Shown: positions 12,361-28,971 of the stretch, piece after piece
Position numbering within the stretch: position 1 is the first letter of the stretch
Layout of the letters: every line of letters begins with the position of its first letter
Source: a virus
Reading direction: 5' to 3' (one strand)
Virus record (IMG/VR): IMGVR_UViG_3300032246_002821
Span: 118,954 to 182,953 of that record
Length of the DNA stretch: 64,000 nt
Notes under the pieces: generated by a model
Told to the model about the DNA's origin: nothing
The model's input: only the letters and a program-made list of their open reading frames with translations
Databases searched by the model: none
Position numbers and translations under genes: made by a program

Positions 12361-12368
12361 TTAACTAT

Positions 12369-13103: not shown

Positions 13104-13951
13104 ATCATCGCGGGGCCAGAGCCATACCAGATGCAGATCACAGGAACTTTTTCCAGTCATTAAACGTGATGAAAAGTCTATATGATACAGATCTGCCTGT
13201 GAGATTTGCCAAGAAATTCCAGCGTTGGATCACAAATAATCGTTTGAACAGTTTGGAATCCCTGAGCCAATATCAGCACATCAGCCTGTGTGCTGGCACC
13301 AGCCAGGCGTTCGATCATTTTTACATCAAACATCACACCAGGCGTTTCCGCACATTAACTGGGGAGTTCATGTATCACAGGGCTGTGTTCAAGCAAGGAT
13401 ACAAACATCTGGATTATCCTCTGGCGCCACTAGATCCCAACGATGCAGTGATAATCAGCGTACCTTTCAGCGACCTGGGCAGCAAGCATCCTGATACCAA
13501 CGAGATACTGCGCCGTTGCAGCGAGATGGGTGTGCCTGTGCTGCTGGATATGGCCTATGTGGTTTGCAGCAAAAACATAGTCATAGATCTGGACCAGAGC
13601 TGCATAGACACTGTGGTATTCAGTCTCAGTAAGATGTTGTATGGTGCGGAAAACCTGCGTGTGGGAATCAGATTCCAGAAGACCAACAGCGACGATGGCA
13701 TAGATGTGTTCAACAGTGTGGGGATGAACAATAGGCTGGACATCGCTGTGGCTGAGCAGATCATCGACACATTTAAACCAGATTACATCTGGGGACGCTA
13801 CAGTGAGAAATATCAGAAAGTGATCAAAGATATGGGCCTACAGGCCACAGACTGCATAATGTTCGGATTAGATGATCAGGACCGTTATCCGGAATTGAAT
13901 CGCGGCAATAAAACCAATCGCGTTTGTATAAGTGATCAGCTATGCACATAA
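13100..13951 (+). CDS. PLP-dependent fold-type I enzyme (aminotransferase-like)
   Basis: LLDMAY and SLSK...LRVG motifs. Confidence 0.7.
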   Translation: MNHRGARAIPDADHRNFFQSLNVMKSLYDTDLPVRFAKKFQRWITNNRLNSLESLSQYQHISLCAGTSQAFDHFYIKHHTRRFRTLTGEFMYHRAVFKQGYKHLDYPLAPLDPNDAVIISVPFSDLGSKHPDTNEILRRCSEMGVPVLLDMAYVVCSKNIVIDLDQSCIDTVVFSLSKMLYGAENLRVGIRFQKTNSDDGIDVFNSVGMNNRLDIAVAEQIIDTFKPDYIWGRYSEKYQKVIKDMGLQATDCIMFGLDDQDRYPELNRGNKTNRVCISDQLCT

Positions 13952-15051
13952 CAGCCACAGACAGATACACTTTTTTCACCTTCAATAATCCCGAGCGTAG
14001 CTATCCTGCCAGGGACATCGTGGCCAACAGATATACAGGTCCAGATCATTGTCTGATAATAGACATCTATAGCATCAATTTCAGAGAGGACAAACAATTC
14101 CAGCATATCCTGGATCATATGACGCCTTATTTCCGAGCAGATAAAAGGCATAGATTGATAATAGATGCTGCCTATGAGGCACCCACATATCGTTATCATC
14201 TCAAGACGTTCATGGATTGGATGGCAGACAATGCTGGTATACCACTGGCAGATCAGGTGATCTTTGGCGGAAGCCAACACCAATTCGATGATCCCATAAA
14301 TTTTGCCCTATGCAACAGCATGGCTATTACCCATATGGTGCTGAAAGACAGCACATATGATCTGGTACCGGAACATCATTATATTAGTCTAGCCAGGATA
14401 GTCAAACGCCATCGTTTGCTCACCACAGTGGAGATCCTGGACAGGGGATTGGAACCCTATGGCTATATGAGCCTGGGCAGTGGTTATTACAACAGGGAGG
14501 GCGAAAACAGTCTGCTGTGGAGAGAGACTCCAGACAGATACAAGGACAAATTCCCCTTGTATATAGAAGGGCTGATAGCACCAGGGGCACTGGCAGAAAA
14601 TCAACACTATGCAGCTGACCCCAAAATGACATTGGCATTTTGCAACGTGGTACAGGAAACCAGTTATGATGCCGAAATCACACCTAGCAACTGGAACACA
14701 CCTTTCATAACAGAGAAAAGCACCAAACCCTTCGCCTGGGGACAGGTTCCTGTGTATGTTGCCACATCAGGGCACGTCAGCTTTGTACGCCAACTGGGTT
14801 TCGATATGTTCGATGATATAATAGATCACGGTTATGATAATGAACACGACGGCCGCAGACGCATATTGATGGCAGTGGATCAATTACAAAAGATCTGTGA
14901 ATTGCCCATAGAGCACTGGCAGCAATACAAACAGCAAAACATTGAAAGGTTCCGACGTAACCGTGAGATAGCGCATAATCTGTATGCCAACAACCAAGAA
15001 ACAATGGTCAGACCCAACACAGAAAATTTACTACGGGTTCTGGATTTATAA
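13942..15051 (+). CDS. GT10-like glycosyltransferase-fold protein (paralogue 3)
   Basis: NVVQETSY...FITEKSTKPFAWGQ...GFDMF; close to paralogue 2. Confidence 0.55.
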   Translation: MHITATDRYTFFTFNNPERSYPARDIVANRYTGPDHCLIIDIYSINFREDKQFQHILDHMTPYFRADKRHRLIIDAAYEAPTYRYHLKTFMDWMADNAGIPLADQVIFGGSQHQFDDPINFALCNSMAITHMVLKDSTYDLVPEHHYISLARIVKRHRLLTTVEILDRGLEPYGYMSLGSGYYNREGENSLLWRETPDRYKDKFPLYIEGLIAPGALAENQHYAADPKMTLAFCNVVQETSYDAEITPSNWNTPFITEKSTKPFAWGQVPVYVATSGHVSFVRQLGFDMFDDIIDHGYDNEHDGRRRILMAVDQLQKICELPIEHWQQYKQQNIERFRRNREIAHNLYANNQETMVRPNTENLLRVLDL

Positions 15052-15059
15052 ATATTTTT

Positions 15060-16214
15060 ATGAAACTTTCAATGATAGGATTGGGTAAACTAGGTTTGCC
15101 CTGCGCCACCGAAATGGCTCGAAAACATCAGGTTCGTGGTTATGATGTCAGCTTCATACCCACCGTATTTCCCCAGGCAGCAAGCATAGCGGATTGCATC
15201 AAGGACAGTGAATTCATATTCATTGCTGTGCCCACACCGCACGAAACAGGTTACGGGGGCGAGACACCCACCAGCCATCTGCCTGTGAAAGATTTCGATT
15301 ATACACTGGTCAAGCAAGTGCTGACAGAGATCGCCCAGCACAAGACACCAGACCAACAGGTGGTATTGATCAGCACTGTATTGCCAGGCACCACCAGGCG
15401 CGAGCTGGCTCCTATTATTCCCGACATCATCTATAATCCCTATCTGATAGCAGTGGGCACAGTGGCGGCAGACTTCGTGGATCCGGAAATGGTGATAATA
15501 GGTTCTGATGCCAATCCCAATGTGCCCAGATTGATAGAACTATACAAGAGTGTGCTGGTACCAGAAGCCAGATACGAAACAGGCACCTGGGAAGATGCCG
15601 AGGCCATAAAGATTTTTTACAACACATTCGCCAGCATGAAACTGGGGTTTGCCAATATGATTATGGATGTGGCCCTGGGTATTGGGCATATGGATCTGGC
15701 TAACATTACCAATGCACTGAGCAACAGCACCAAGCGCATAATGAGCAGCAAATATATGACGCCGGGCCTGGGCGATGGGGGTGCTTGCCATCCCCGAGAT
15801 AATATCGCTCTGAGATGGTTGAGCGATAGGCTGGATCTGGGTTATGATATGTTCGGAGAGATAATGCGTACTCGTGAAGTGCAGGCACGTAGATTGGCCG
15901 AACGCCTGTGCAGCTACGAATTACCTGTGGTGATACTGGGCAAAAGCTATAAAGAGAATGTGCATAACACAGATGGCAGTTACGGTCTGCTGGTGGGTCA
16001 TTATGTGGAAAAACTGGCTGGCAATGTGAATTACGTGGATCCGCTCAACAATACCGATTACGTGGCCAAGACAGCCAGCACGTTCTTGATCAGTTACCAT
16101 CATGATTGGATATCAGATTATGCAGATTATCCCGCAGGCAGCATCATAGTGGATCCCTGGCGTAGGAATCTGCAGATACCAGGATGCCGGGTGGTCAACC
16201 TTGGACAAGTTTGA
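15060..16214 (+). CDS. ugd: UDP-glucose/GDP-mannose 6-dehydrogenase
   Basis: GLGKLG Rossmann motif, IAVPTP, ISTVLPG, EAIKIFYN, GDGGACHPRD. Confidence 0.9.
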   Translation: MKLSMIGLGKLGLPCATEMARKHQVRGYDVSFIPTVFPQAASIADCIKDSEFIFIAVPTPHETGYGGETPTSHLPVKDFDYTLVKQVLTEIAQHKTPDQQVVLISTVLPGTTRRELAPIIPDIIYNPYLIAVGTVAADFVDPEMVIIGSDANPNVPRLIELYKSVLVPEARYETGTWEDAEAIKIFYNTFASMKLGFANMIMDVALGIGHMDLANITNALSNSTKRIMSSKYMTPGLGDGGACHPRDNIALRWLSDRLDLGYDMFGEIMRTREVQARRLAERLCSYELPVVILGKSYKENVHNTDGSYGLLVGHYVEKLAGNVNYVDPLNNTDYVAKTASTFLISYHHDWISDYADYPAGSIIVDPWRRNLQIPGCRVVNLGQV

Positions 16215-17301
16215 ATACCTGTGGGGTCAACACGAGAAAAATCTCGCAGATGTCCTGGAAGTATGGGCACGAACATTTCCTCCTGATAGCTTGGTAGCGG
16301 ATCTGGTACAAAATGATGGCAGCGATGGATTCAATGATATCGCAGATCTCATAGCATCCAGACTAGCACCAGGACAGACAGTGATACTGACCCATACCTG
16401 GGAGGCTGCTGAAAATTATTTGCTGGGCATAGCAGCGCGGTTATATCACAAAGGCATAGGCAGGGATCGCATCGTGGTGATCTGCTGCGGTTATCCCAAA
16501 AAATTATATCAGCAAACCATAATAGAATACGCCAGATTATACCATCTGCCTTACTTCCTGGTACGCACCTATAACAACAACAGTTGCCTGACACCTGGCG
16601 CCAAAAAACCAGGTTTCATCTGCCTCAACCGCAGGCCCAAATTCCCACGCAGTTATCTCATCAGCTGCTTGCTGGATCTGGGACTGGCGGATCATTGCAG
16701 CTGGGCTGGCAAAGACATCTACTTCAATGTGGGACCGGTGAGCGATTATACCAAACAAAAGATAGACAGCGTGATGAACCTGGATCATGCACGGTCTCAA
16801 TTGGACGATGGTCGATTTACCAGGTATCTCAACAACTGGCAGTGGTTCTCGTCGGCACACCACATCTCCAGCGACATCTATCCCAATGTGAATGACCACA
16901 GCACCAACAGCCCAGTGTACAACCATCTGATAAATGTCATCAGCGAAACCTATTGCGACGATAGCAACGAAGACGGCGTGGATGCCGATGGTTTTCATAG
17001 TATATTCCTCACGGAAAAGACCTACAAGAGCATCTATGCCAAGCAGATATTCCTGATCCAAAACAGTTGCCATACTCTTGATTATCTTAGAATGATGGGA
17101 TTCAAGACATTTGAAATGCTGGATCAAAGTTATGACCGTATTCCAGATGTCATCACACGCACGGAGAAATTAATAGATGTGCTACAGGATTGTCTGCAAA
17201 ATGCAGATTTGAATATAATGACCTGCACAATACGAAATCACAATCACAACCATATGATATCACTGGTGGAATCAGGCACATATTTGCTTGACTTAAATTA
17301 A
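16201..17301 (+). CDS. GT10-like glycosyltransferase-fold protein (paralogue 4)
   Basis: NVISETY...FLTEKTYKS...GFKTF; TTG start uncertain. Confidence 0.55.
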   Translation: MDKFEYLWGQHEKNLADVLEVWARTFPPDSLVADLVQNDGSDGFNDIADLIASRLAPGQTVILTHTWEAAENYLLGIAARLYHKGIGRDRIVVICCGYPKKLYQQTIIEYARLYHLPYFLVRTYNNNSCLTPGAKKPGFICLNRRPKFPRSYLISCLLDLGLADHCSWAGKDIYFNVGPVSDYTKQKIDSVMNLDHARSQLDDGRFTRYLNNWQWFSSAHHISSDIYPNVNDHSTNSPVYNHLINVISETYCDDSNEDGVDADGFHSIFLTEKTYKSIYAKQIFLIQNSCHTLDYLRMMGFKTFEMLDQSYDRIPDVITRTEKLIDVLQDCLQNADLNIMTCTIRNHNHNHMISLVESGTYLLDLN

Positions 17302-17315
17302 GATGATGCTATAAT
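17288..17315 (+). promoter_or_regulatory. sigma70-type promoter
   Basis: TTGACT-N16-TATAAT, TGC before -10. Confidence 0.75.
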
Positions 17316-17321
17316 CGCCAT

Positions 17322-18179
17322 ATGAAGATTCAAATTGTCAGTGACTTACATCTGGAACACCGCAATGACCTACCCGTGCTGCACAATGCTGGGGCTGATG
17401 TGCTGATATTGGCTGGCGACATCTGCCAGGCAGAAGATCTGTATCGTAATCCCCGTGATAAATTCACAGTGGATGGTCAAGTTGCCGATCTGTCACAGGT
17501 GATGACCGGTGATTGGCGTGGCTGGGATGCCAGACGTTTCCGTGAGTTCTTCCAGCATTGCAGCGATAACTGGCCACACGTGCTGTATGTGTCAGGTAAC
17601 CACGAACATTATGATGGTCGTTGGGAGCGCACATCAGATATCCTACGCACAGAGATGGCACATTACCACAATATCCATTTTATGGATCAGGACAGCATTA
17701 CCATAGATGGTATCAGGTTCCTGGGTGTGCCATTGTGGACCAGTTTCAAAGATGCAGATCCCAATGTGATGTGGGCTGTGAAAAGCTACATGAGCGACTA
17801 CCGCTGGATCAAACACTTCAATGCAGGTCAGTGGGGCAGGTTGCGTCCCCAGGATACCTTGGCCAAACATCAGAGCGATGTCAGTTGGCTGACAGATCAA
17901 CTTGCAATGGATCACACGCCCACGGTCATCATAGGGCATCACGCACCCAGCTATCAGAGCATCCACGAGATGTATCGCAACCAGGCGGATATGAACTATG
18001 CTTTTTGCAGCAGCCTGGATCATATGATGGTCACAAATTATCATATCCGACTATGGGTCCACGGTCACGTCCACAACTGTTTCGATTATTCAATCAATCA
18101 GGCACGTGTGGTGTGCAATCCCCTGGGTTACCCATCAGAGACCACAGGATTTGATCCTGCATTGGTTGTGGAAGTTTAG
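17322..18179 (+). CDS. calcineurin-like metallophosphoesterase
   Basis: SDLH, AGD, GNHE, GHH, HGHVH. Confidence 0.9.
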   Translation: MKIQIVSDLHLEHRNDLPVLHNAGADVLILAGDICQAEDLYRNPRDKFTVDGQVADLSQVMTGDWRGWDARRFREFFQHCSDNWPHVLYVSGNHEHYDGRWERTSDILRTEMAHYHNIHFMDQDSITIDGIRFLGVPLWTSFKDADPNVMWAVKSYMSDYRWIKHFNAGQWGRLRPQDTLAKHQSDVSWLTDQLAMDHTPTVIIGHHAPSYQSIHEMYRNQADMNYAFCSSLDHMMVTNYHIRLWVHGHVHNCFDYSINQARVVCNPLGYPSETTGFDPALVVEV

Positions 18180-18289: not shown

Positions 18290-18583
18290 TCAGCTACTCT
18301 GCACCACAGCGATAGTGCTGGCAGCTACATAACCCACATTGGCCACAACCACTTCAGCAGTGCCGGCGGTAGTGATGAATGCGATCTTGTTGCCCAGTCC
18401 TTCCATATTGATGTCTCTGGTAGCACCAGCTGGAACCACCATACAGTTGCCTGTGAAGGCGGTGGGATTAGCACCTACAGCATAGTGTACGCTGACGTTG
18501 CTGGTCACTTTGACTTTGGTGGTCTGTACAGCAGCACTCTGGGTGCTTGTTCCACTAACCGTAAGAACTTGTGCGGTGGCCAT
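18290..18583 (-). CDS. small beta-rich putative virion protein
   Basis: 97 aa, T/A/V-rich; TAAATA late motif at 18604-18609 (minus strand). Confidence 0.65.
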   Translation of the reverse strand: MATAQVLTVSGTSTQSAAVQTTKVKVTSNVSVHYAVGANPTAFTGNCMVVPAGATRDINMEGLGNKIAFITTAGTAEVVVANVGYVAASTIAVVQSS

Positions 18584-18680: not shown

Positions 18681-19064
18681 TTGTTACCAGTACCCTATCA
18701 CCCTGCACAAGTGCAGCGATATTTCCACGAATACCACAATTATGAGTATTTTCCACAAGCCGAAGCCATCGAAGTTCGCGAGTACCGCAGGATCGATCCT
18801 GCTGACGTCAAAGCCCGTATCCTGGATTATCTGGGAGAGGTGCTGGCTCGTTGCTGGTGCAACAAGGACCTTATGGCACTGCTCAAGCAGAATCCCCACG
18901 AGTGTTTGCTTCAGTTGGGCATCATCCTGCCGGAAGAGCTGAACATCCTGGTGGAAGAACGCCGGAATAATCCCAATCGTCCCAGATTGGTTGTGTATGA
19001 AAAGCAGGGCAAGATGACCAAACGTGTGTGCCACCTGCAACTGATGATGACCGCTGGCAGGTAG
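18681..19064 (+). CDS. hypothetical protein with an NHLP-leader/nitrile-hydratase-like segment
   Basis: TTG start with SD GGAGG; LARCWCNKDLMALLKQNPHECLLQLGIILPEELNILVEE. Confidence 0.55.
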   Translation: MLPVPYHPAQVQRYFHEYHNYEYFPQAEAIEVREYRRIDPADVKARILDYLGEVLARCWCNKDLMALLKQNPHECLLQLGIILPEELNILVEERRNNPNRPRLVVYEKQGKMTKRVCHLQLMMTAGR

Positions 19065-19099: not shown

Positions 19100-19133
19100 T
19101 TGTAATATGATTGTAACATTCGTAATCCATAAT
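19100..19133 (+). promoter_or_regulatory. Pho-box-like direct repeat plus -10
   Basis: TTGTAAT-atga-TTGTAAC (11-bp period), then 10 bp, then CATAAT, upstream of olsB. Confidence 0.7.
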
Positions 19134-19158
19134 ACGGTAAGTAAACGAAGAGGTTTGA

Positions 19159-20067
19159 ATGATGCAACCCGTATTTCCAGATTTTAAATTCATGATAAAT
19201 GCTTTAAATCGCGATCTGGAAAAGAGTATATTTGGTAAGATACCTTTCGTCATACCCAAGAGTTATACGGTGGTGCTGGGTCGCATAGGTGATCTGGAGA
19301 TCCGGCTGGCACAGACTCGTAAAGAGATCAAGCAAGCACAGAAACTCAGGTATCGTATATTCTTCAAAGAGCAAGGTGCCATCGCCACATTAGAGGCGAT
19401 GATGAAACAGAGAGACATAGATCCATATGATGCATATTGTGATCATCTACTGGTGGTGGATACGAAGTATCCTAGAAAGAAGATGCCAGGAGTTAAAGAA
19501 CTTTATAAAGAACAAGTGGTAGGCACCTATCGCCTACTCAGACAAGATGTAGCAGAAAAGTATTCGGGTTTCTACAGCCAAACAGAGTTTGATGTAGCGG
19601 CCTTGATCCAGCGACACCCAGGCAAGCGTTTCTTAGAGCTAGGGCGTAGCTGCGTTGATAGCGCATACCGCGACAAACGCACCATAGAACTATTGTGGCG
19701 TGGCATCTGGTGGTATGTGAACGAGTGTAAGATAGATGCCTTGTTCGGCTGTGCCAGTTTCGAAGGCACAGATGTTAAAAAATTGTCTGAACAACTGAGC
19801 TTGCTACAAGATGCTGCCAGTGCTGCACCTGAATGGCAAACCCAGGCACATCGTTCGGATTATGACAACACAGATAGGGTGACAGATTATGATGCTAAAA
19901 AAGTGTTGCATCAGTTGCCCACACTGATAAAAGGTTATATGCGCTGTGGTGCCAGGTTCGGCACAGGCGCTGTGATAGATAGAGAATTCAATACCACCGA
20001 TGTGCTAGTGGTATTGCCTGTCACAGACATCACACCCAGATATCGTGAACACTTTACCATGCAGTGA
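19159..20067 (+). CDS. olsB: ornithine-acyl-ACP N-acyltransferase (GNAT), ornithine lipid synthesis
   Basis: LGRIGDLEIRLA...RDIDPYDAYCDHLLV...VGTYRLL...FYSQTEF...LELGRSCV...RTIELLW...FGCASF...LPTLIKGYMRCGA, the Rhizobiales OlsB pattern. Confidence 0.82.
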   Translation: MMQPVFPDFKFMINALNRDLEKSIFGKIPFVIPKSYTVVLGRIGDLEIRLAQTRKEIKQAQKLRYRIFFKEQGAIATLEAMMKQRDIDPYDAYCDHLLVVDTKYPRKKMPGVKELYKEQVVGTYRLLRQDVAEKYSGFYSQTEFDVAALIQRHPGKRFLELGRSCVDSAYRDKRTIELLWRGIWWYVNECKIDALFGCASFEGTDVKKLSEQLSLLQDAASAAPEWQTQAHRSDYDNTDRVTDYDAKKVLHQLPTLIKGYMRCGARFGTGAVIDREFNTTDVLVVLPVTDITPRYREHFTMQ

Positions 20068-20090
20068 AAAAATATTTTTAATATCAGTGA

Positions 20091-20108
20091 TTGTAACACG
20101 ATTGTAAT
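20091..20108 (+). promoter_or_regulatory. second Pho-box-like direct repeat
   Basis: TTGTAAC-acga-TTGTAAT (11-bp period), near-copy of the 19100 element; TAAATA at 20120-20125. Confidence 0.65.
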
Positions 20109-20173
20109 ATTGCCGGTCTTAAATATTTGTGGTAGATGGTCTACCGCTTTTATTTTTTCCCAGGGGAAACAAA

Positions 20174-20488
20174 ATGAATCTTGATATGGTTGAACACGGT
20201 CTAGTGGTTAGTGTTAGTTTTGCGGAAGCAGACGATTTCGACAATGGTCCTGTTCTGGCAGCTATCAATGCTCTTGTAGAAGCATTGAAAGATTGTGCAG
20301 AAGTTAGTGTAAGCATCAGCAGCGAATATGTTGATGATAATGAAGAAGACTTAGTCCAGGAAGATGCAGATGATGAATTCGCTGATGATCAAGAAGATGA
20401 TGAAGCAGATGAATCAGAACATGATGCAGAAGATGCATCAGAAGATACAGATGCTGATGCAGAACACAAAGAAGATGACTTGCACTAA
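20174..20488 (+). CDS. very acidic small protein
   Basis: 104 aa from ATG 20174, about 40 D/E, 2 K, 0 R; SD agggga. Confidence 0.7.
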   Translation: MNLDMVEHGLVVSVSFAEADDFDNGPVLAAINALVEALKDCAEVSVSISSEYVDDNEEDLVQEDADDEFADDQEDDEADESEHDAEDASEDTDADAEHKEDDLH

Positions 20489-20546
20489 CAGCGTGATTTG
20501 AACTCGACAAATCCAGAGCAGTATGTTATACTGCTCTTTTTTTTGG

Positions 20547-20552
20547 TAAATA
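20547..20552 (+). promoter_or_regulatory. late promoter core TAAATA
   Basis: 6 nt upstream of the plcP ATG. Confidence 0.55.
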
Positions 20553-20558
20553 GCAGAC

Positions 20559-21332
20559 ATGAAACAATACAAAAGCATATTCATCAGCGACGTACACCTG
20601 GGCACCAAAGGCAGCAAAGCCGAACTATTACTGGCATTCCTACGAGAAGTAGAATGTGAAAACCTGTTCCTGGTGGGAGACATCCTGGACGGTTGGAGGA
20701 TGAAGAAAAACTGGTACTGGAACGAACACCACAGCACAGTGGTGCAGAAGATACTCAGGATGGCTCGTAAAGGCACAAAAGTTTATTATATCCCTGGCAA
20801 TCACGACGATTTTATGCGTGAATTCTTGGAATATAATTTCGGTAGCATAGAGCTGCACAACGAAATGATTTATACAGGCGTCAATGGCAATCAATACATT
20901 GTGATACATGGTGACAAGTTCGATATCGTGACACTGAATGCCAAATGGCTAGCACACATCGGGGACTGGGCCTATACAGCTCTATTGGATCTCAACACAA
21001 CATTGCATTGGGTAATGCACAAGCTAAAGTTGCCCTATTGGAGCCTGAGCAAATGGGCCAAGAACCAGGTCAAGCAGGCTGTCAGCTTTGTAGGAGATTA
21101 TGAAACCAGTCTGGTGAATTATGCCAGGTTGAAAAAAGCAGACGGCATCATATGTGGACACATCCACAGTGCCCGGATAGGAATGATTAACGATATAGAA
21201 TACATGAACTCAGGCGACTGGGTGGAGAGTTGCACGGCCCTGGTTGAACATACCGATGGTCTCTGGGAGATAATTACTTGGACAACAGACACTGATGTGG
21301 TTATTGATACTACTGGCAGTCAAGATAGGTGA
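20559..21332 (+). CDS. plcP: PlcP-type metallophosphoesterase phospholipase C (usually annotated UDP-2,3-diacylglucosamine hydrolase-like)
   Basis: IFISDVHLG, LVGDILDGW, VVQKILRMARKG, PGNHD, HGDKFD, WSLSKWAK..VK.AV, CGHIH, NSGDWVESCTAL. Confidence 0.82.
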   Translation: MKQYKSIFISDVHLGTKGSKAELLLAFLREVECENLFLVGDILDGWRMKKNWYWNEHHSTVVQKILRMARKGTKVYYIPGNHDDFMREFLEYNFGSIELHNEMIYTGVNGNQYIVIHGDKFDIVTLNAKWLAHIGDWAYTALLDLNTTLHWVMHKLKLPYWSLSKWAKNQVKQAVSFVGDYETSLVNYARLKKADGIICGHIHSARIGMINDIEYMNSGDWVESCTALVEHTDGLWEIITWTTDTDVVIDTTGSQDR

Positions 21333-21528
21333 TCCTGCAGATGTTCCTGGTCGTGTGACCCTGGAATTTCCCACAGAGCAAGCCTGTCAGGCCAGTTTGA
21401 AAACAATGACCTATTGGTTGAAATTCGATAGTTTCAAAGTCACAGGAGCCTGCAAAAGAAATGAAAATAACACTGGTAACAGACACCTGGAAACCCAGCA
21501 TAAATGGGGTAGTGACAACACTAACTAA
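21295..21528 (+). CDS. small phage-type hypothetical protein between plcP and agt
   Basis: hydrophobic N-terminus, FPTEQACQ motif; overlaps both neighbours. Confidence 0.5.
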   Translation: MWLLILLAVKIGDPADVPGRVTLEFPTEQACQASLKTMTYWLKFDSFKVTGACKRNENNTGNRHLETQHKWGSDNTN

Positions 21529-22471
21529 CACCGTACAGCATCTCATACAGCAGGGTCATGATGTACAGATCATAGAGCCTGGCCAGTTTCACACTGTAGG
21601 TGCACCTGGATATGCGGAAGTCAGACTCAGCTGGAACCTGTGGCAAGTGGGCCGGATGATCGAACAGTTCGATCCTGATGCCATACACATCGCCACAGAA
21701 GGTCCACTGGGATTAGCAGCCAGATGGTACTGCAAGGTGGAAAAGCGTAGCATACCACACAACACCAGCTATCACACCAAGTTTCCTGAATATCTCTATC
21801 AGCATTATCACATACCGGAAAGCTGGACCTATCGCTGTATGCGGGTGTTCCACAAGTTCAGCACCCGTGTGCTGGTGACCAATCAGGATATGATGACCGA
21901 TCTCGGTGAACGTGGTTTTGAAAATCTCAGCATCTGGAATCGTGGTGTGGATCGTGAGCTATATCATCCTGATCGTCGTCGTAGGCTCAGCTATCGCAGG
22001 CCCATAATACTGTGTGTTAGCCGTGTCAGTAAAGAAAAAGGACTGGACGACTTCTGCAGTCTACGTGTCAAAGGCACCAAAGTACTTGTGGGAGATGGAC
22101 CTATACTTCCGGAATTGAAAAGACGTTATCCAGATGTGGTATTCGCAGGTGCCAAGACAGGTACTGCACTGGCTGAATACTATGCTGCCGCGGATGTATT
22201 CGTGTTTCCCAGCCAGACCGATACTTTCGGTGTGGTGATGTTGGAAAGTATAGCGTCAGGTACACCTGTGGCTGCTTACCCTGTGACAGGTCCCCGAGAC
22301 GTGGTGATAAATGACGTCAACGGTTACATGGATTCAGACTTGACTGTTGCTGTGGAACGTGCTATGTTATGTGATAGAGTGGCGGTCAGGAACAGCAGCG
22401 AGCAATACGACTGGGCAGCTTGCACCGAAACTTTTGTAAAAAATCTGAAAATAATCGAAAAAAATAGTTGA
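21461..22471 (+). CDS. agt: GT4 glycosyltransferase, Agt-like monoglycosyl/glucuronosyl-diacylglycerol synthase
   Basis: LVTDTWKPSINGVV, PGYAEVRLS, IHIATEGPLG, YHTKFPEY, FVFPSQTDTFGVVMLES. Confidence 0.75.
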   Translation: MKITLVTDTWKPSINGVVTTLTNTVQHLIQQGHDVQIIEPGQFHTVGAPGYAEVRLSWNLWQVGRMIEQFDPDAIHIATEGPLGLAARWYCKVEKRSIPHNTSYHTKFPEYLYQHYHIPESWTYRCMRVFHKFSTRVLVTNQDMMTDLGERGFENLSIWNRGVDRELYHPDRRRRLSYRRPIILCVSRVSKEKGLDDFCSLRVKGTKVLVGDGPILPELKRRYPDVVFAGAKTGTALAEYYAAADVFVFPSQTDTFGVVMLESIASGTPVAAYPVTGPRDVVINDVNGYMDSDLTVAVERAMLCDRVAVRNSSEQYDWAACTETFVKNLKIIEKNS

Positions 22472-22802: not shown

Positions 22803-22879
22803 CCGCCCTTAGATAACGCTGGCTATATCACTACCCTTTCAAGGTAGAGTAACGGGATCGACACCCGTAGGGCGGACCA
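22803..22879 (+). tRNA. tRNA-Glu(UUC)
   Basis: cloverleaf, CTACC-CTTTCAA-GGTAG, CCA; T-loop ATCGACA. Confidence 0.85.
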
Positions 22880-22885
22880 GTTAAA

Positions 22886-22960
22886 GGACCAGTAGTTCAG
22901 AGGGAGAACAACCGACTCTTAATCGGTGTGTCGCAGGTTCGATCCCTGCCTGGTCTGCCA
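22886..22960 (+). tRNA. tRNA-Lys(CUU)
   Basis: ACCGA-CTCTTAA-TCGGT, TTCGA, CCA. Confidence 0.92.
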
Positions 22961-22963
22961 ATA

Positions 22964-22992
22964 TTGACTTTATCAGTGACATTGTATAAAAT
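22964..22992 (+). promoter_or_regulatory. sigma70-type promoter
   Basis: TTGACT-N17-TAAAAT. Confidence 0.6.
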
Positions 22993-23011
22993 CAAAGAAA
23001 AGGACAATGTT

Positions 23012-23719
23012 ATGGATATATTTTGGAGTGTGGCAGAATGTGCCAGCATACCACATATAAGTTATGAAGAACCCAGGCCGGTTTTGGCAGAAATATCAAA
23101 AACCATTCCTGAGTTCCAAAATCCAAAAAACCGTATAACCAGCTGCCCTGCTTTCCGTGACAGTTGTAAAAACACCTATAGTTTACACGTACCCATAGAG
23201 TATGAATTGACTTATGCTAATAACGACATCAGCACCACAATGTGGGACAGAGAATTTTTTACAGATGTGGTCACAGTCAGAGATTTCAAATATCCCAACT
23301 GGACCAGTATGCAGTTCAAATACATATTTGTTGCAGAGGGAGATCTGGAAATAGAAGTGCTGCCTTGTTTCCTGACTAGCAACAGTTTCACAGACAATGC
23401 AGACATCATACCTGGCCGGATGAACATTGGCAAATGGTTCAGACCTGTGGAATGTGCGTTCGTAGTTAAGTCAGGCGACAGGACCATAACATTCAACCAG
23501 GGCGATGCATACAGTTTTGTCAGGTTTTTGACTGATGAAAAGATCCGTTTACGTAGGTTTTTCATGACACCCGAATTGAATCACATCACCAGCAGCAACA
23601 TAAGCGCCAGAGATTACAAACGCAGATTGAATCCGCTGAGTTATTTTTACAATCTGTACGAACGCAGCCATATGCACAGCAAAGTGCTAAAAGAAGTAAA
23701 AAATAACCTGATGGAATGA
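23012..23719 (+). CDS. conserved phage hypothetical protein (CPAF...IGKWFRP...FNQGD family)
   Basis: start moved to ATG 23012 to avoid tRNA-Lys. Confidence 0.75.
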   Translation: MDIFWSVAECASIPHISYEEPRPVLAEISKTIPEFQNPKNRITSCPAFRDSCKNTYSLHVPIEYELTYANNDISTTMWDREFFTDVVTVRDFKYPNWTSMQFKYIFVAEGDLEIEVLPCFLTSNSFTDNADIIPGRMNIGKWFRPVECAFVVKSGDRTITFNQGDAYSFVRFLTDEKIRLRRFFMTPELNHITSSNISARDYKRRLNPLSYFYNLYERSHMHSKVLKEVKNNLME

Positions 23720-23861
23720 GTTGTGGGTGGAGGTAACCCTCAGTGGAGCAGGCCACTCAGAAACCATCCTGCTGAGTAGGATCCATCACAGGATCTGGGC
23801 AAGGGCGATCATAAGCCAGTGTGGCAGCGGTAGAGGGGGCTGGTCACACACTAAATATCCG

Positions 23862-24170
23862 ATGCGTATAGCCGAGATATTGACAGAATTGGATTTCATG
23901 GGCAGTCCTTGCACCAAAGATTGCAGTGGACACCAGGCAGGTTATATGTGGAGCCTGAACAAGGGCGGCAAGGTTGCCAACAGCTGGAGCAACAGTTTCA
24001 ACAACGGTGCTGCCATAGGTCACAAACAGGCCACACAGCGTCCACAGGGCGGAGGTAAACGTGCTGGTTATACCAGCCAGACTCCAGGTGCTATGAGACG
24101 CAGGAATCAGAGATTGGCTGCACAACAGGCTGCTCAGGCAGCGGCAGCACAACAACCACCACAAGTTTAA
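23862..24170 (+). CDS. late hypothetical protein MRIAEILTE...
   Basis: TAAATA at 23852; CTKDCSGHQAGY motif. Confidence 0.7.
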   Translation: MRIAEILTELDFMGSPCTKDCSGHQAGYMWSLNKGGKVANSWSNSFNNGAAIGHKQATQRPQGGGKRAGYTSQTPGAMRRRNQRLAAQQAAQAAAAQQPPQV

Positions 24171-24180
24171 AACTTTATAT

Positions 24181-24255
24181 GTAGGGATAGTTTAATAGGC
24201 AAAATCTTGGTCTCCAAAACCAAAGTTCCCAGATCGTTGCTGGGTCCCTATGCCA
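24181..24255 (+). tRNA. tRNA-Trp(CCA), non-canonical T-loop
   Basis: TTGGT-CTCCAAA-ACCAA; T-arm CCCAG-ATCGTTG-CTGGG; CCA. Confidence 0.75.
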
Positions 24256-24261
24256 TTACAC

Positions 24262-24418
24262 TGTTACAAACCCTCCAAGTGATAGCGATCTTGTCATAGG
24301 TTTTGTAACATTTTCACTTGGGCAGGCCTGCTAAACTATGATCTGCCTCCGCCACACACGAAACGCAGGATGGGCTGTGTGTGCCAGGCTGTGGAGTGCC
24401 TGAACAAATACTCCACAC
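24262..24418 (+). ncRNA. candidate structured RNA between tRNA-Trp and tRNA-Cys
   Basis: 9-bp, 8-bp, 7-bp and 8-bp complementary helices; no credible ORF. Confidence 0.5.
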
Positions 24419-24424
24419 TAATTT

Positions 24425-24498
24425 GGTCTGGTGTCGGAGTGGTTACGGAGCGGTCTGCAAAACCGCCTACGAGAGTTCGATTCTCTCCCAGACCTCCA
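24425..24498 (+). tRNA. tRNA-Cys(GCA)
   Basis: GCGGT-CTGCAAA-ACCGC, U73, CCA. Confidence 0.92.
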
Positions 24499-24502
24499 AT
24501 CT

Positions 24503-24578
24503 GCTTAGATAGCTCAGCTGGTAGAACACTGCGCTGAAGACGCAGGTGTCAGCGGTTCGATCCCGTTTCTAAGCACCA
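24503..24578 (+). tRNA. tRNA-Phe(GAA)
   Basis: CTGCG-CTGAAGA-CGCAG, CCA. Confidence 0.92.
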
Positions 24579-24579
24579 T

Positions 24580-24656
24580 ACACCCTTAGCTCAGCTGGAT
24601 AGAGCATCTGACTACGAATCAGAAGGCCGGGAGTTCGAATCTCTCAGGGTGTGCCA
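24580..24656 (+). tRNA. tRNA-Arg(ACG)
   Basis: TCTGA-CTACGAA-TCAGA, CCA. Confidence 0.93.
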
Positions 24657-24666
24657 AAAATAAGTA

Positions 24667-24694
24667 TTGACATATATGTTAGATGTAGTAATAT
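24667..24694 (+). promoter_or_regulatory. sigma70-type promoter
   Basis: TTGACA-N16-TAATAT. Confidence 0.65.
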
Positions 24695-24716
24695 GACATA
24701 TACAGGAGATTAGGCG

Positions 24717-25142
24717 ATGATGGAATGTTTGATCTTGGGCGACAGCATCGGACGCGGCATCAGCAGTGTCATGCGCGATTGTGTTCAAATCACAGAAATC
24801 GGCATCAATACTGATAACTGGTACAAGAAATATCACGATCGTCCCATATTCGATATGCAACAATATCGGTATGTGGTGGTCAGTCTGGGATCCAACGACA
24901 TCGCAGATAGCAGTGCCACCATGCGCCGCATACGCAAGAAATTCAGTGCTGCCAAAGTCATATGGGTATTGCCCAGCGATCAGGTCAAAGCGCCACAGCG
25001 AGCCATAGTGGAAAATGTAGCTGCAGAATTTGGCGATTGGGTTTTAAGTATCACTGACCGGGTGGGGGCGGACAAGGTGCACCCACCCACAGTGGAAGCA
25101 TATGAAAAGATAGCAAAAAACATAAAGGACAGTGTAAAATGA
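24717..25142 (+). CDS. SGNH/GDSL hydrolase-like protein (paralogue of 1097..1516)
   Basis: GDSIG, SLGSND, DKVHP. Confidence 0.72.
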   Translation: MMECLILGDSIGRGISSVMRDCVQITEIGINTDNWYKKYHDRPIFDMQQYRYVVVSLGSNDIADSSATMRRIRKKFSAAKVIWVLPSDQVKAPQRAIVENVAAEFGDWVLSITDRVGADKVHPPTVEAYEKIAKNIKDSVK

Positions 25143-25474
25143 TCAAGCGTATTGTTATGGCTACCTGTTTGATTGCATCACCAGCTGTTGCGGAAACCTG
25201 GGCCACTGCTGATTGCACGTTGGCCAACGGTGGCAAGATCCGCTACGCGGTACACGACAGCAAAGGTTTTATCTCTTATGATGGAGAAGGACCCTATGAG
25301 ATGTTTACCAAACGCGATGGTAATATGGGCATTGTCACACACATCGGCAACCGTGGTAACACAGTGTTGGCAGTGGATCTGGATAGCGGCCGAGGGTATA
25401 TTATCACCAAGTTTGATAATGGTCACACCAGAGAAATGAATGTCAGTTGCCGTTTGGGCGTCACAGAAAAATAA
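25139..25474 (+). CDS. secreted/periplasmic hypothetical protein
   Basis: signal-peptide-like MIKRIVMATCLIASPAVA. Confidence 0.7.
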   Translation: MIKRIVMATCLIASPAVAETWATADCTLANGGKIRYAVHDSKGFISYDGEGPYEMFTKRDGNMGIVTHIGNRGNTVLAVDLDSGRGYIITKFDNGHTREMNVSCRLGVTEK

Positions 25475-25478
25475 CCGG

Positions 25479-25506
25479 TTGACAACTATCTTAACTGTGT
25501 TATATT
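25479..25506 (+). promoter_or_regulatory. sigma70-type promoter
   Basis: TTGACA-N16-TATATT, TGT before -10. Confidence 0.75.
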
Positions 25507-25521
25507 CATAATATAGAGTTT

Positions 25522-25598
25522 GGTCAAGTAGCTCAGTTGGTTAGAGTGCCGGCCTGTCACGCCGGAGGTCGCGGGTTCGAGCCCCGTCTTGATCGCCA
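25522..25598 (+). tRNA. tRNA-Asp(GUC)
   Basis: CCGGC-CTGTCAC-GCCGG, CCA. Confidence 0.93.
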
Positions 25599-25619
25599 AA
25601 TTAGAGTCGCTGGATTACT

Positions 25620-25830
25620 ATAGAGACGGTCACCGCGGTCTGTCTCTTGTGCGTACCAGTGCTGGAGGCCCGTCAAACCAGCATAAACAAACGTGGCAGG
25701 AATTGGCAAGGGGAACTACTCGGCAGTCGCATCGCAAGATGTCGCAACGGAGCCCCTTGCCGTCGAGGCCAGAGGGATTGTAGGTGGACCTGTATTATAT
25801 GCCCTTGGGGTGTTGTGACTGGGCTTGTAA
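25620..25830 (+). ncRNA. candidate multi-stem structured RNA between tRNA-Asp and tRNA-Lys
   Basis: 8-bp, 6-bp and 9-bp helices, GCAA tetraloop. Confidence 0.5.
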
Positions 25831-25846
25831 CCTTCATAAATTTTAA

Positions 25847-25922
25847 GAACCCATAGCTCAGTAGGTAGAGCACCTGACTTTTAATCAGGGTGTCGCCGGT
25901 TCGACCCCGGCTGGGTTCACCA
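25847..25922 (+). tRNA. tRNA-Lys(UUU)
   Basis: CCTGA-CTTTTAA-TCAGG, CCA. Confidence 0.93.
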
Positions 25923-25923
25923 A

Positions 25924-26154
25924 TTATGCAAACTTGCTGGCTATGCTGATAGCAGTTATCAACGCAGCTTTAACGGCCATATCGTCAGCTTCTTCGTTCA
26001 AACGATCGGTTGCGATAAGGTCTTCCATAAGTTCAGCTGCTTCTTCAGGTGATAATGCGCCTGAGTTGCGTTGCTTCTGGATGTCTAGGGCCATCTTAGC
26101 GCGAGTTTCTGCCCAACCTGATCCGCAGTGTGCTAGTTCTTGTAGTGATGCCAT
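25924..26154 (-). CDS. hypothetical protein
   Basis: 76 aa, coupled (TAATG) to the upstream lipoprotein. Confidence 0.7.
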   Translation of the reverse strand: MASLQELAHCGSGWAETRAKMALDIQKQRNSGALSPEEAAELMEDLIATDRLNEEADDMAVKAALITAISIASKFA

Positions 26155-26546
26155 TAGAATCTCCCTAAAACGGCTTTGCTTGATAGTTCAGCTTGTTTAA
26201 CTAATATGTCTTTCTTAATCCGGCAATAGGCAGCACTGGGTTCTTTTTCTTTGCTACGGTCTGCCCATTCGTTCACTGTCTTTTGCATAGGAGCGATCAG
26301 TTCCAGCACATCGTGTTGCAGATAGCCTTTGCTCTCGCTGTACAGTTCAAACCATTGAAGTTCTTTTTGTATTTGTACAGCTTGAAAGTTTTGTGTATCT
26401 TCACAGTTGATGTTAACAATCAGTTGTCTGGCTGTTATGATGCTCCTGGATTGGTTGTCATCCCAGAAGCTGGGCACGAATGTTGCTACCGTTGCATTGC
26501 AACCGGCTAATACTAAGAAACTCAATACCGCGATGATTTTTTGCAT
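26154..26546 (-). CDS. putative lipoprotein
   Basis: lipobox LAGC; TAAATA at 26551-26556 (minus strand). Confidence 0.7.
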   Translation of the reverse strand: MQKIIAVLSFLVLAGCNATVATFVPSFWDDNQSRSIITARQLIVNINCEDTQNFQAVQIQKELQWFELYSESKGYLQHDVLELIAPMQKTVNEWADRSKEKEPSAAYCRIKKDILVKQAELSSKAVLGRF

Positions 26547-26577
26547 ACAGTATTTAGTTTTTGATAACTACCATAAC

Positions 26578-26653
26578 GCCCAATTAGCTCAGATGGTAGA
26601 GCAGTTGATTAGTAATCATCAGGTCGGCGGTTCGAATCCGTCATTGGGCACCA
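26578..26653 (+). tRNA. tRNA-Thr(AGU)
   Basis: GCCCAAT acceptor, anticodon loop TTAGTAA, TTCGAAT, CCA; one U-U mismatch in the anticodon stem. Confidence 0.85.
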
Positions 26654-26668
26654 TTATTAAGGTTCGCT

Positions 26669-27787
26669 ATGTTCGTAAAATGCATCAGGATGGAAGCCTA
26701 TTTCGGAGCCAGTTATAACTTCGAAAGATTGAAGGAAAATATACAAAAAGATCTGGCACAGACAAGAGCAGCTGGTACTGAACCCTATTTCTTCCTCAGT
26801 TATTGTTGGGAGAATTTTCCTGAATTCTATTGGTACGACAATGTCACTCAAAATATCCGTAGCATATTGAAAGACCTGGGCATAACACATTATAAATTCG
26901 TGTTTCCCACCAGTTTTTTACACAATAGATATCCAGTGTACACTGGCCAGATAGACCAGTCGGATATGATCTTCCTGGAGTTTTTTGCTCTATACAGTTT
27001 CCATAAGATATTCGGAGATCAAAAGAAATATCGCAGCTGGAATTATTCGGGAGAGGTGTTGGCCAATCCTGCCTGGAACAGTGACAGCGATCGCGCCCTG
27101 TTGCTATTGGGCAAGATAGCCAAATTGAACCGTATGCCATTGCTGGCCGAATTCTACAGAGCCAATAACCTGTCGCGCATAGACTGGAGTTTGTATCTGA
27201 ACGATAACATCAAAGCCGATGCCAGGCATCTGGCCCCAGAATTTACAGATGAGGAATATGAAATATTCATATCCCAGATGACCAAGAGACTGGATCCCAT
27301 AGACGTGCAGATGCAGGAACGCAGCAGCCATTACTGGGGTTTTCCTTATGATGTAAACTTATACAAAAACACTTGCCTGAGTGTCATAAGCGAAACCAAC
27401 TTCATGTATAACCAGACAGTGTGGGTTACAGAAAAAACCTATCGTGCCATAGCCAATAGGCATCCTTTCGTCATGGCTGCGCCTCCTGGTAGTTTGAAAT
27501 ACATCAAGACCCTGGGTTTCAAGACTTTCGAAGAATATATGCAGATAACAGATTATGATGATATAGAATATGACAAGCAAAGATTGGGCAGTATAATGAC
27601 CAATACCATGTATTTTCTTGATACTAAACACACAAATCTAGAAGAGATAAATGCAGATGTGGAGCATAACTACCAGAACCTTATAGATTTCGTCGATAGG
27701 GAAATTTTAAAACTTGACAAAGTGCTGGATTCAGTGCATAATAGACAGGATAAAGAAACAAGTTGGTCCTTATTGGCCCAGATGTAA
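26669..27787 (+). CDS. GT10-like glycosyltransferase-fold protein (paralogue 5)
   Basis: SVISETNF...WVTEKTYRA...GFKTF. Confidence 0.55.
   Translation: MFVKCIRMEAYFGASYNFERLKENIQKDLAQTRAAGTEPYFFLSYCWENFPEFYWYDNVTQNIRSILKDLGITHYKFVFPTSFLHNRYPVYTGQIDQSDMIFLEFFALYSFHKIFGDQKKYRSWNYSGEVLANPAWNSDSDRALLLLGKIAKLNRMPLLAEFYRANNLSRIDWSLYLNDNIKADARHLAPEFTDEEYEIFISQMTKRLDPIDVQMQERSSHYWGFPYDVNLYKNTCLSVISETNFMYNQTVWVTEKTYRAIANRHPFVMAAPPGSLKYIKTLGFKTFEEYMQITDYDDIEYDKQRLGSIMTNTMYFLDTKHTNLEEINADVEHNYQNLIDFVDREILKLDKVLDSVHNRQDKETSWSLLAQM
27714..27742 (+). promoter_or_regulatory. sigma70-type promoter inside the gene end, driving tRNA-Gly
   Basis: TTGACA-N17-CATAAT. Confidence 0.5.
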
Positions 27788-27789
27788 TT

Positions 27790-27864
27790 GCGGTTGTAGC
27801 TCAGTGGTAGAGCGTCACGTTGCCAACGTGAATGTCGTCGGTTCGACCCCGATCAGCCGCTCCA
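27790..27864 (+). tRNA. tRNA-Gly(GCC)
   Basis: TCACG-TTGCCAA-CGTGA, U73, CCA. Confidence 0.92.
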
Positions 27865-27869
27865 ATTTT

Positions 27870-27941
27870 ACTGCTGTCGGTGTTGATGGGAAACACAGAT
27901 GGACAACACTAGGACACCGTTCGAATCGGAGCAGCAGTACC
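27870..27941 (+). pseudogene. tRNA-like element with a collapsed anticodon arm
   Basis: acceptor ACTGCTG/CAGCAGT, D-stem GTGT/ACAC, T-loop TTCGAAT; no proper anticodon stem; ends ACCT. Confidence 0.6.
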
Positions 27942-27947
27942 TGATTA

Positions 27948-28021
27948 GCGGGCTTGGTATAGTGGTATTATGACAGCCTTCCAAGCTGACGAGACGGGTT
28001 CGATTCCCGTAGCCCGCTCCA
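27948..28021 (+). tRNA. tRNA-Gly(UCC)
   Basis: loop CTTCCAA, U73, CCA. Confidence 0.92.
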
Positions 28022-28027
28022 AAATTT

Positions 28028-28101
28028 GCTGTCTTGGTGTAATGGAAGCACACGAGTTTGTGGAACTCGTAGCACAGGATCGATACCTGTAGACAGTGCC
28101 A
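28028..28101 (+). tRNA. tRNA-His(GUG) lacking G-1, with G1-U72 and G73
   Basis: CGAGT-TTGTGGA-ACTCG; T-loop ATCGATA; upstream base is T. Confidence 0.8.
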
Positions 28102-28106
28102 TATAA

Positions 28107-28189
28107 GGGGCGGAAGTATCAAGGTGATACCGTGGACTGTAAATCCACCGCTTATAGCACGCCTGGTTCGATTCCAGGACGCCCCACCA
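28107..28189 (+). tRNA. tRNA-Tyr(GUA)
   Basis: GTGGA-CTGTAAA-TCCAC, long variable region, CCA. Confidence 0.9.
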
Positions 28190-28229
28190 CTACACACTAA
28201 ATAAAAGGTCAATTGAACAAAGGTCATCA

Positions 28230-28874: not shown

Positions 28875-28880
28875 TATTAT
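28852..28880 (+). promoter_or_regulatory. sigma70-type promoter for tRNA-Met/Pro
   Basis: TTGACA-N17-TATTAT. Confidence 0.6.
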
Positions 28881-28889
28881 AAGGAATAT

Positions 28890-28966: not shown

Positions 28967-28971
28967 AGTTA

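Follow-up and report, generated by a model that had tools for sequence, protein, structure and literature searches.

The DNA described here is the last 64 kb of the 182,953-bp virus record IMGVR_UViG_3300032246_002821 of the IMG/VR database (positions 118,954 to 182,953 of that record). This whole stretch of 64,000 nucleotides is called the window below. The completeness of the record is estimated by CheckV at about 54%, which gives a genome size of roughly 340 kb for this phage. Three genes, olsB, plcP and agt, follow each other on the plus strand between positions 19,100 and 22,471 of the window and are accompanied by two short direct repeats of the Pho-box type. A preliminary description of the sequence had named an OlsB-like GNAT, a PlcP-like metallophosphoesterase and an Agt-like glycosyltransferase of family GT4 at this locus, and all three open reading frames (ORFs) are present on the plus strand at the coordinates collected in Table 1.

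Table 1. Features of the module and of its surroundings in the window (upper rows) and related phage contigs carrying the same genes (lower rows; L numbers designate individual contigs or loci).
Feature	Position	Strand	Remarks
Nucleotide-sugar dehydrogenase, ugd-like, in a separate upstream operon	15060-16214	+	PHROG 9148, 271 bits
Second, unrelated phage metallophosphoesterase (phrog_1649)	17322-18179	+	Syntenic neighbour in L011 and L013
Pho-box-type element 1, TTGTAAT-ATGA-TTGTAAC	19100-19117	+	42-59 nt upstream of the olsB ATG
-10-like hexamer, CATAAT	19128-19133	+	10 nt downstream of element 1
olsB, ornithine N-alpha-acyltransferase (first ornithine-lipid step, predicted)	19159-20067	+	302 aa; NF052555, PF13444
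Pho-box-type element 2, TTGTAAC-ACGA-TTGTAAT	20091-20108	+	Precedes the acidic ORF and plcP
Conserved hairpin (GTGGTAGAT...CTACC) between element 2 and the acidic ORF	20129-20147	+	Terminator-like call
Small acidic protein with Asp/Glu-rich tail, in the plcP transcription unit	20174-20488	+	104 aa; homologues in L014 and L012
Terminator-like hairpin with T run, overlapping a sigma-70-like promoter	20515-20537	+	Just upstream of plcP
plcP-type metallophosphoesterase (LpxH-like superfamily phospholipase C, predicted)	20559-21332	+	257 aa; Pfam Metallophos, tree, synteny
agt-type GT4 glycosyltransferase (diacylglycerol to glucosyl/glucuronosyl-diacylglycerol, predicted)	21461-22471	+	336 aa; Glyco_transf_4 and Glycos_transf_1
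L004/L005, ENA scaffold; same protein also on a 349-kb contig			olsB abuts plcP
L011, IMG/VR, 58 kb (completeness about 14%)			pstS between olsB and plcP
L012, IMG/VR, 31 kb (completeness about 9%)			pstS between olsB and plcP
L013, 136.6-kb scaffold			plcP and agt separated by a RimK-like ATP-grasp gene
L014, ENA scaffold			pstS between olsB and plcP
185-kb ENA contig, gene order alone read (without DNA)			Same gene order

The preliminary description had attributed the module to the phage genome, and this attribution is well founded. Tail sheath, baseplate and tail-fibre genes are encoded in the window, 22 tRNA genes are located at 22803-32009, and the GC content stays between 0.44 and 0.49 across 10-26 kb, a section that spans the module and displays no step at its position. 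A survey of related phages, suggested in the same description, showed that six other phage contigs, from other assemblies, share the gene order olsB, plcP, agt amid phage genes. One detail was not borne out: the ORFs preceding the module, 18290-18583 (-) and 18681-19064 (+), lack any Pfam or PHROG family match, and the virion-type gene described on the flank was not confirmed. No record related to this phage DNA was retrieved from the phage collection using blastn and megablast. An alphaproteobacterial two-piece transfer-messenger RNA (tmRNA), missed by ARAGORN and recovered by an Rfam search (RF01849, 135.5 bits; RF04321, 95 bits), is encoded in the same record at L105 1116-1449 (-), i.e. G000:C1 about 44115-44448. 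This RNA suggests that the host is an alphaproteobacterium; the PlcP, Agt and OlsB pathways have been characterised in that group.

The product of olsB displays a Pfam Acetyltransf_5 domain (PF13444, 1.5e-29) and reaches 335.4 bits over residues 37-300 on the Brucella-type OlsB equivalog of NCBIfam (NF052555), whose cut-off is 320. On the Rhodobacter-type model NF052554 the score is 221 bits, under the cut-off of 350. Its relatives comprise about 20 clusters on large phage-like contigs at 66-95% identity, followed by a gap and then by the OlsB proteins of Hyphomicrobiales at 55-57%. In the phylogenetic tree the 26 phage-type sequences constitute a single clade (Shimodaira-Hasegawa-like approximate likelihood-ratio test, SH-aLRT, 100; stem 0.94) nested in bacterial OlsB of the Hyphomicrobiales type, and 75 alignment columns are invariant across phage and bacterial proteins. 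On the strength of the curated equivalog and of the tree, the protein is assigned to the OlsB family, as had been proposed. This gene is rare in phages: no tblastn match was obtained in 50,697 phage records, no PHROG family covers it, and besides the present record only two IMG/VR contigs encode it. The control genomes of the profile search contain no OlsB. As a separate observation, an OlsB-like gene (29-35% identity) adjoins plcP-agt in two freshwater Burkholderiales metagenome-assembled genomes (L070, 4276-6690, and L081), and a three-gene layout is therefore met in bacteria as well.

All the calcineurin-type metal motifs of the phage PlcP (DxH, GD, GNHD, HGD and GHxH) are invariant, the residues concerned being D11, H13, D41, N81, H82, H117, H201 and H203 in the alignment. 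The protein reaches 52.5 bits on the LpxH equivalog NF003743 (cut-off 134) and 46.6 bits on TIGR01854 (cut-off 190). In Roseateles and Variovorax a true LpxH is encoded at a separate locus (182-212 bits on TIGR01854) and 36-42 bits are reached by the counterpart of the phage protein, while Bradyrhizobium and Azospirillum contain only the PlcP-like paralogue, with 46-52 bits on the LpxH model. The clustering with LpxH that the preliminary description had kept in mind is not seen in the phosphoesterase tree, where a very long branch (SH-aLRT 100) sets LpxH apart. The phage sequences, including those of Pelagibacter phage Mosig and of a T4-like lake phage, are grouped (SH-aLRT 87) inside an alpha- and betaproteobacterial PlcP-like clade. 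The phage protein shares 49-57% identity with bacterial operon PlcP proteins, and an agt-like gene is found directly downstream in 68 of the 80 closest bacterial plcP loci (49-56% identity), an arrangement known as the 'type 2' plcP-agt layout (PMC4796936). This bacterial set consists of the 80 closest species, none of them a characterised strain; SMc00171, Atu2297, MED193_17359 and PB7211_983/960 are thus outside the comparison. Fold prediction yields an LpxH-like structure in which residues 118-191 form a helical insertion of low confidence, and its top 25 matches in the PDB are all LpxH structures (TM 0.51-0.65, about 20% identity over the whole length). The earlier PlcP-like reading was upheld in these comparisons, which place the protein in the PlcP-type paralogue, distinct from LpxH, with a predicted phospholipase C activity.

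The phage GT4 is 41-51% identical over its full length to the GT4 proteins encoded downstream of bacterial plcP, including that of a Roseibium (Labrenzia) species. Residues shown to matter were reported for GTcp, the SAR11 enzyme (bioRxiv 10.1101/2021.03.25.437072). The identity reported within its clade is 46-58%, with less than 25% to other GT4 proteins. The Agt/GTcp motif FPSxTDTFG reads FPSQTDTFG in the phage protein (249-257), with Asp254, not Glu, as the catalytic residue. The catalytic His is His105 in YHTKFPEY, which aligns with the GT4 proteins of the bacterial operons. With respect to the diacylglycerol-binding positions Thr162/Arg163 and Trp320 of GTcp, the phage protein displays Asn at the Thr position, Arg161 and Trp318. 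The latter two are conserved with the bacterial partners and would be the counterparts of key GTcp residues, GTcp itself standing outside the alignment. All curated GT4 equivalog models are missed by far. The motifs, the catalytic His and Asp and the synteny with plcP agree with the Agt-like assignment of the preliminary description, and the protein is classified from its sequence as an Agt/GTcp-type GT4 of predicted activity.

The three genes are maintained under purifying selection among these phages, with ratios of nonsynonymous to synonymous substitution rates (dN/dS) of 0.06-0.18 relative to the copies of the window and synonymous divergence (dS) ranging from 0.6 to saturation. The pairwise ratio is 0.10-0.13 for olsB and about 0.10 for agt. 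In L011, L012 and L014 the gene inserted between olsB and plcP encodes a PstS-type phosphate-binding protein of 305 aa (PF12849, 127-133 bits). In the phages that carry olsB, the identity values of plcP (45-87%) do not parallel those of the other two genes, olsB and agt (67-87%). Their plcP genes fall into two clades, and the allele of the window is closer to that of T4-like phages (69%). These values suggest that the plcP allele was probably exchanged between phages by recombination. Two further genes were noted in the relatives. The ATP-grasp ligase of L013 (8639-9517) is of the RimK type (PF08443, 177 bits), and an alpha/beta-hydrolase (PHROG 789, esterase/lipase) that might act on lipids is encoded just upstream of olsB in L014 (4622-5542), near ArfA and T4-type PNKP genes.

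Beyond this group, a PlcP relative is encoded by at least 587 IMG/VR contigs. Among the best 80 of these, an Agt-like GT4 is found within 4 kb in 35, pstS in 7, T4-type nrdA in at least 7 and olsB in none. olsB is likewise missing from two plcP-bearing jumbo phages of at least 95% completeness. In T4-like phages the plcP-agt pair adjoins genes of nucleotide supply (ribonucleotide reductase and thyX), and in Pelagibacter phage Mosig a plcP of 50% identity is divergently oriented beside pstS. Phages thus commonly carry the plcP-agt pair, and its extension by olsB is limited to a small group of jumbo phages. The pstS/plcP intergenic region of Mosig (L002, MT647606.1, 4851-5000) contains TTAACA-type repeats with an 11-nt spacing (TTTAACA AAAA CTTAACA), which may represent a SAR11-type Pho box common to both genes.

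The preliminary description had linked the module to phosphate starvation, and this link is strengthened by the two repeated elements, by the pstS gene of the three relatives and by the Pho boxes of bacterial plcP and olsB. The PHO box consists of two 7-nt repeats (CTGTCAT in E. coli) located 4 nt apart, 18 nt in total (PMC4415409). Both elements of the window display this form, two 7-nt direct repeats with a 4-nt spacer (YTGTAAY-N4-YTGTAAY), and the pattern matches exactly twice in the window, where none is expected, and exactly twice in the whole 183-kb record. Element 1 occupies the same position upstream of olsB in all five relatives for which DNA was available (L004, L011, L012, L013 and L014) although the surroundings have diverged. 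Its variants include CTGTAAT AATT CTGTAAC in L004, TTGTCAT CATA CTGTTAT in L012 and TTGTAAT CTTA CCGTCAT in L014. Element 2 is found after pstS in L014 (TTGTAAT CGAA CTGTAAT) and displays canonical TGTCAT half-sites in L012 (TTGTCAT CATA GTGTCAT). In 128.7 kb, where 0.65 matches to a degenerate Pho-box pattern would be expected, 10 are obtained, nine of them at promoters of the module and on the coding strand. The tenth, CTGTTAT GAAC GTGTCAC at 60432-60449 (+) of the window, lies inside a minus-strand gene and is probably due to chance.

The -10-like hexamer follows the Pho-box-type site at 10-11 nt and is kept TATAAT-like in the alignment of the olsB upstream regions. No -35 element is present at this promoter, which would resemble PhoB-activated promoters. 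Upstream of the bacterial plcP genes, a consensus-score scan with shuffles found CTGTCAT-N4-CTGTCAT at 11 or more of the 14 positions in 27 of 80 regions, mostly at -70 to -76, against 1.2% of the shuffles; a strict TGT[CA]A-N6-TGT[CA]A pattern is met in only 3 of the 80. Similar boxes, one of them reading CTGTAAT CTTA CGTCAC, precede the olsB genes of the bacterial sister group. Because of their format, their conservation in the relatives and the Pho boxes of the bacterial plcP and olsB homologues, the two sites are read as candidate PhoB targets. The hairpin that follows element 2, which is conserved in L014 and has an analogue in L012, may be either the olsB terminator or a structure of the 5' untranslated region.

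Taken together, these data make it probable that the module is controlled by PhoB and replaces phospholipids by glycolipids and ornithine lipids in a phosphate-starved host, thereby freeing phosphorus. The proposed sequence of events can be briefly summarized as follows. When phosphate is scarce, the phosphorylated PhoB of the host would bind the Pho-box-type sites ahead of two transcription units. The first unit would supply OlsB, which would acylate ornithine with a 3-hydroxyacyl chain, and the resulting lyso-ornithine lipid would receive its second acyl chain from the OlsA of the host. From the second unit, the small acidic protein, PlcP and Agt would be produced in this order. PlcP would cut the phospho-head group off membrane phospholipids and leave diacylglycerol, to which Agt would add glucose or glucuronate. 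The net effect would be the replacement of phospholipid by a phosphorus-free glycolipid and an aminolipid, the bilayer being kept and phosphate esters being released, from which host phosphatases could then liberate phosphate to be used in the DNA of this phage, with its estimated genome of about 340 kb. The preliminary description had likewise proposed that the phage mines phosphate by exchanging host phospholipids for phosphorus-free lipids. The enzyme identities, the phage origin of the genes and the link with phosphate on which it relied were retained, while its virion-type flank and the contribution of ugd (see below) were not.

A number of observations weigh against this interpretation. 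A sigma-70-like promoter and a terminator-like hairpin are located between element 2 and plcP, and the Pho control of plcP-agt is therefore uncertain in this phage. The half-sites of most of these phages have the form TGTAAY and not TGTCAY. No olsA-type acyltransferase (PF01553) is encoded in the 183-kb record, which covers about 54% of the genome. OlsB alone gives only lyso-ornithine lipid, so that the host must complete this branch. In its other UDP-sugar motif the GT4 has SRVSKEKG where GRVAxEKN is the consensus (Gly to Ser and Asn to Gly, with Arg, Glu and Lys retained), a form common to the phage clade, most bacterial partners displaying GRVAVEKN. PlcP releases phospho-head groups rather than free phosphate and no dedicated phosphatase was identified in the module. 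Neither pstS nor phoH is found in the 183-kb part of this phage. Finally, the interpretation is one built from sequence comparisons.

The same enzymes could also serve another purpose, namely a change of the envelope lipids for superinfection exclusion, permeability or lysis timing, with the recovery of phosphorus as a by-product. This is possible but unlikely. Phage binding is reduced in an olsA mutant of Ruegeria pomeroyi, a species in which aminolipids affect attachment (PMC9938194), and lipid renovation is discussed as altering the phage susceptibility of P. aeruginosa (PMC9804370). A purpose of this kind would also suit a gene such as olsB, which is the add-on of one sub-lineage and is absent from the two nearly complete plcP-bearing jumbo phages mentioned above. 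However, more aminolipid favours attachment in Ruegeria and does not block it, the module is tied to phosphate stress by its Pho-box-type sites and by pstS, and the plcP-agt pair of T4-like phages is placed beside ribonucleotide reductase and thyX, i.e. among functions of nucleotide supply.

It is quite unlikely that the module merely builds new phosphorus-free membrane in the starved cell during a long jumbo-phage infection, PlcP acting only as the supplier of diacylglycerol and no net phosphorus being mined. PlcP is the sole route to diacylglycerol in many alphaproteobacteria (PMC4796936), and the synthesis started by OlsB is de novo and releases no phosphorus. Each diacylglycerol made by PlcP nevertheless removes one phospholipid, and the membrane phosphorus falls in any case. 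This proposal differs from phosphorus mining in emphasis and the two are inseparable by sequence.

A function unrelated to lipid renovation is very improbable. The phosphoesterase would then be LpxH, the GT4 would act on lipopolysaccharide (LPS) or on the cell wall, and the GNAT would be a haemolysin-like or other N-acyltransferase. Such functions are indeed suggested by the labels of the source records ('LpxH', 'glycosyltransferase involved in cell wall biosynthesis' and 'putative hemolysin'), by the listing of viral lpxH under LPS biosynthesis in virome surveys and by the closest solved fold, which is LpxH. They are already contradicted by the family tests. Both LpxH equivalog cut-offs are failed by a wide range (47-52 bits against 134-190), a true LpxH is encoded elsewhere in the genomes that have one, and the alphaproteobacteria that were checked contain only the PlcP-like paralogue with which the phage protein groups. 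LpxH was consequently rejected as the identity of the phosphoesterase. The cell-wall label of the GT4 was set aside in view of its Agt/GTcp motifs and its synteny with plcP, and the haemolysin label in view of the OlsB equivalog. The PlcP group carries the label 'LpxH' in databases, and the Mosig record reads UDP-2,3-diacylglucosamine hydrolase; this label is probably wrong for the whole group, in databases as well as in the auxiliary metabolic gene (AMG) lists of viromes.

The possibility that host DNA was mis-assembled into a viral contig has a negligible probability, since the bacterial ancestry of all three genes is outweighed by the absence of a composition break, by phage genes and the tRNA array on both sides, by the same module amid phage genes in independent assemblies of other samples, and by phage copies that form their own clades and are at most 57% identical to any bacterial sequence found.

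As regards the neighbouring genes, the acidic ORF that precedes plcP has no Pfam or PHROG match. Its homologues are found at the same place in L014 (46% identity) and L012 (30%), and it is absent from L004 and L013, in which olsB abuts plcP. The preliminary description had suggested that the ugd gene further upstream could supply UDP-glucuronate. The protein is a nucleotide-sugar dehydrogenase with the catalytic Cys present in GGACHPRD and with 144 bits on NCBIfam TIGR03026, under the cut-off of 190. Its possible link to the module is a matter of proximity: no ugd was detected in the flanks examined for the relatives, nor in the two related IMG/VR fragments G006 and G007, which are only 9-14% complete and hence say little. 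The gene belongs to a tight plus-strand run (12336-18179) which comprises a 2-oxoglutarate-Fe(II) oxygenase, a weak aminotransferase-like ORF, an ORF with no assignment, the dehydrogenase, another such ORF and the phrog_1649 metallophosphoesterase, and which looks like a sugar-modification operon. The ORF at 18681-19064 (127 aa, TTG start) gives a weak NHLP-leader-like match (TIGR03793, 23.6 bits, under the cut-off) and is conserved just upstream of element 1 in L011, L004 and probably L013. The tRNA array also encloses genes for a BPL_N-domain protein (28230-28874) and for a radical SAM/SPASM protein (30199-31287).

A wider proposition can be formulated, for and against which the chances appear evenly balanced: it would be common for phages of aquatic bacteria to draw on the membrane of the host as a store of phosphorus. 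Phospholipids would be dismantled by a PlcP-Agt pair switched on by PhoB, the bilayer would be rebuilt from phosphorus-free lipids and the lipid phosphorus would pass into phage DNA. OlsB, together with PstS in the relatives, would extend this pair in the present jumbo lineage, the phosphoesterase gene having gone unrecognised as lpxH in at least 587 viral contigs. Phosphate often limits bacteria and their phages, and large phage genomes need much phosphorus. According to a rough estimate, a 350-kb double-stranded DNA genome contains about 7x10^5 phosphorus atoms and a bacterial cell roughly 10^6-10^7 phospholipids; on these figures, the phosphorus of the membrane could suffice for several to tens of genomes. 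If the interpretation is correct, the lipid exchange would provide a second, internal route to phosphate beside the genes directed at external phosphate (pstS, phoA and phoH), infected cells would contribute differently to lipid pools and to phosphorus cycling in lakes and oceans, and the viral 'lpxH' entries of AMG catalogues would sit in the wrong pathway. The module offers testable parts, with three enzymes for which bacterial mutants are known and two short candidate PhoB sites.

No description of a phage-encoded PlcP, Agt or OlsB was found in full-text literature searches, and the genome note of Mosig makes no mention of its plcP or pstS. The preliminary description knew of no account of a three-enzyme remodelling set in a phage. 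The literature searches agree, with the reservation that plcP, alone or with agt, is itself widespread. What is new is the three-enzyme form with its ornithine-lipid branch, its Pho boxes, the presence of pstS inside the module in relatives and the restriction to one lineage of jumbo phages.

Among known systems, the closest is the bacterial PlcP-Agt operon, whose 'type 2' plcP-agt layout was described for marine bacteria (PMC4796936) and which is represented by the PlcP of S. meliloti, the PlcP and Agt/GTcp of SAR11 HTCC7211 and the Agt of A. tumefaciens (PMC4796936, bioRxiv 10.1101/2021.03.25.437072). The phage module shares with it the order plcP then agt, intact catalytic motifs and upstream sites of the Pho-box type. 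It differs by its location on a lytic-type jumbo phage, by sequences that form their own clades, by the acidic ORF before plcP, by the SRVSKEKG motif and by the addition of olsB, joined by pstS in relatives. The OlsB/OlsA pathway of Alphaproteobacteria such as S. meliloti and Brucella abortus (PMC12971839, PMC3017556) is matched through the Brucella-type model, the 55-57% identity to Hyphomicrobiales and the Pho boxes of the bacterial sister genes. In contrast to that pathway, the phage possesses only the first enzyme within the 183 kb, and this enzyme is rare in phages. LpxH belongs to the same superfamily and displays the same fold as the phage PlcP, yet the latter fails both LpxH models and is a separate paralogue. 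The pstS, phoA and phoH genes of cyanophages and pelagiphages are likewise host-derived phosphate-stress genes apparently placed under the starvation regulator of the host, the pstS of cyanophages being controlled by the host PhoBR system. These genes serve to import or scavenge external phosphate, whereas the PlcP-Agt-OlsB module would redistribute the internal phosphorus of the cell and rebuild its membrane.

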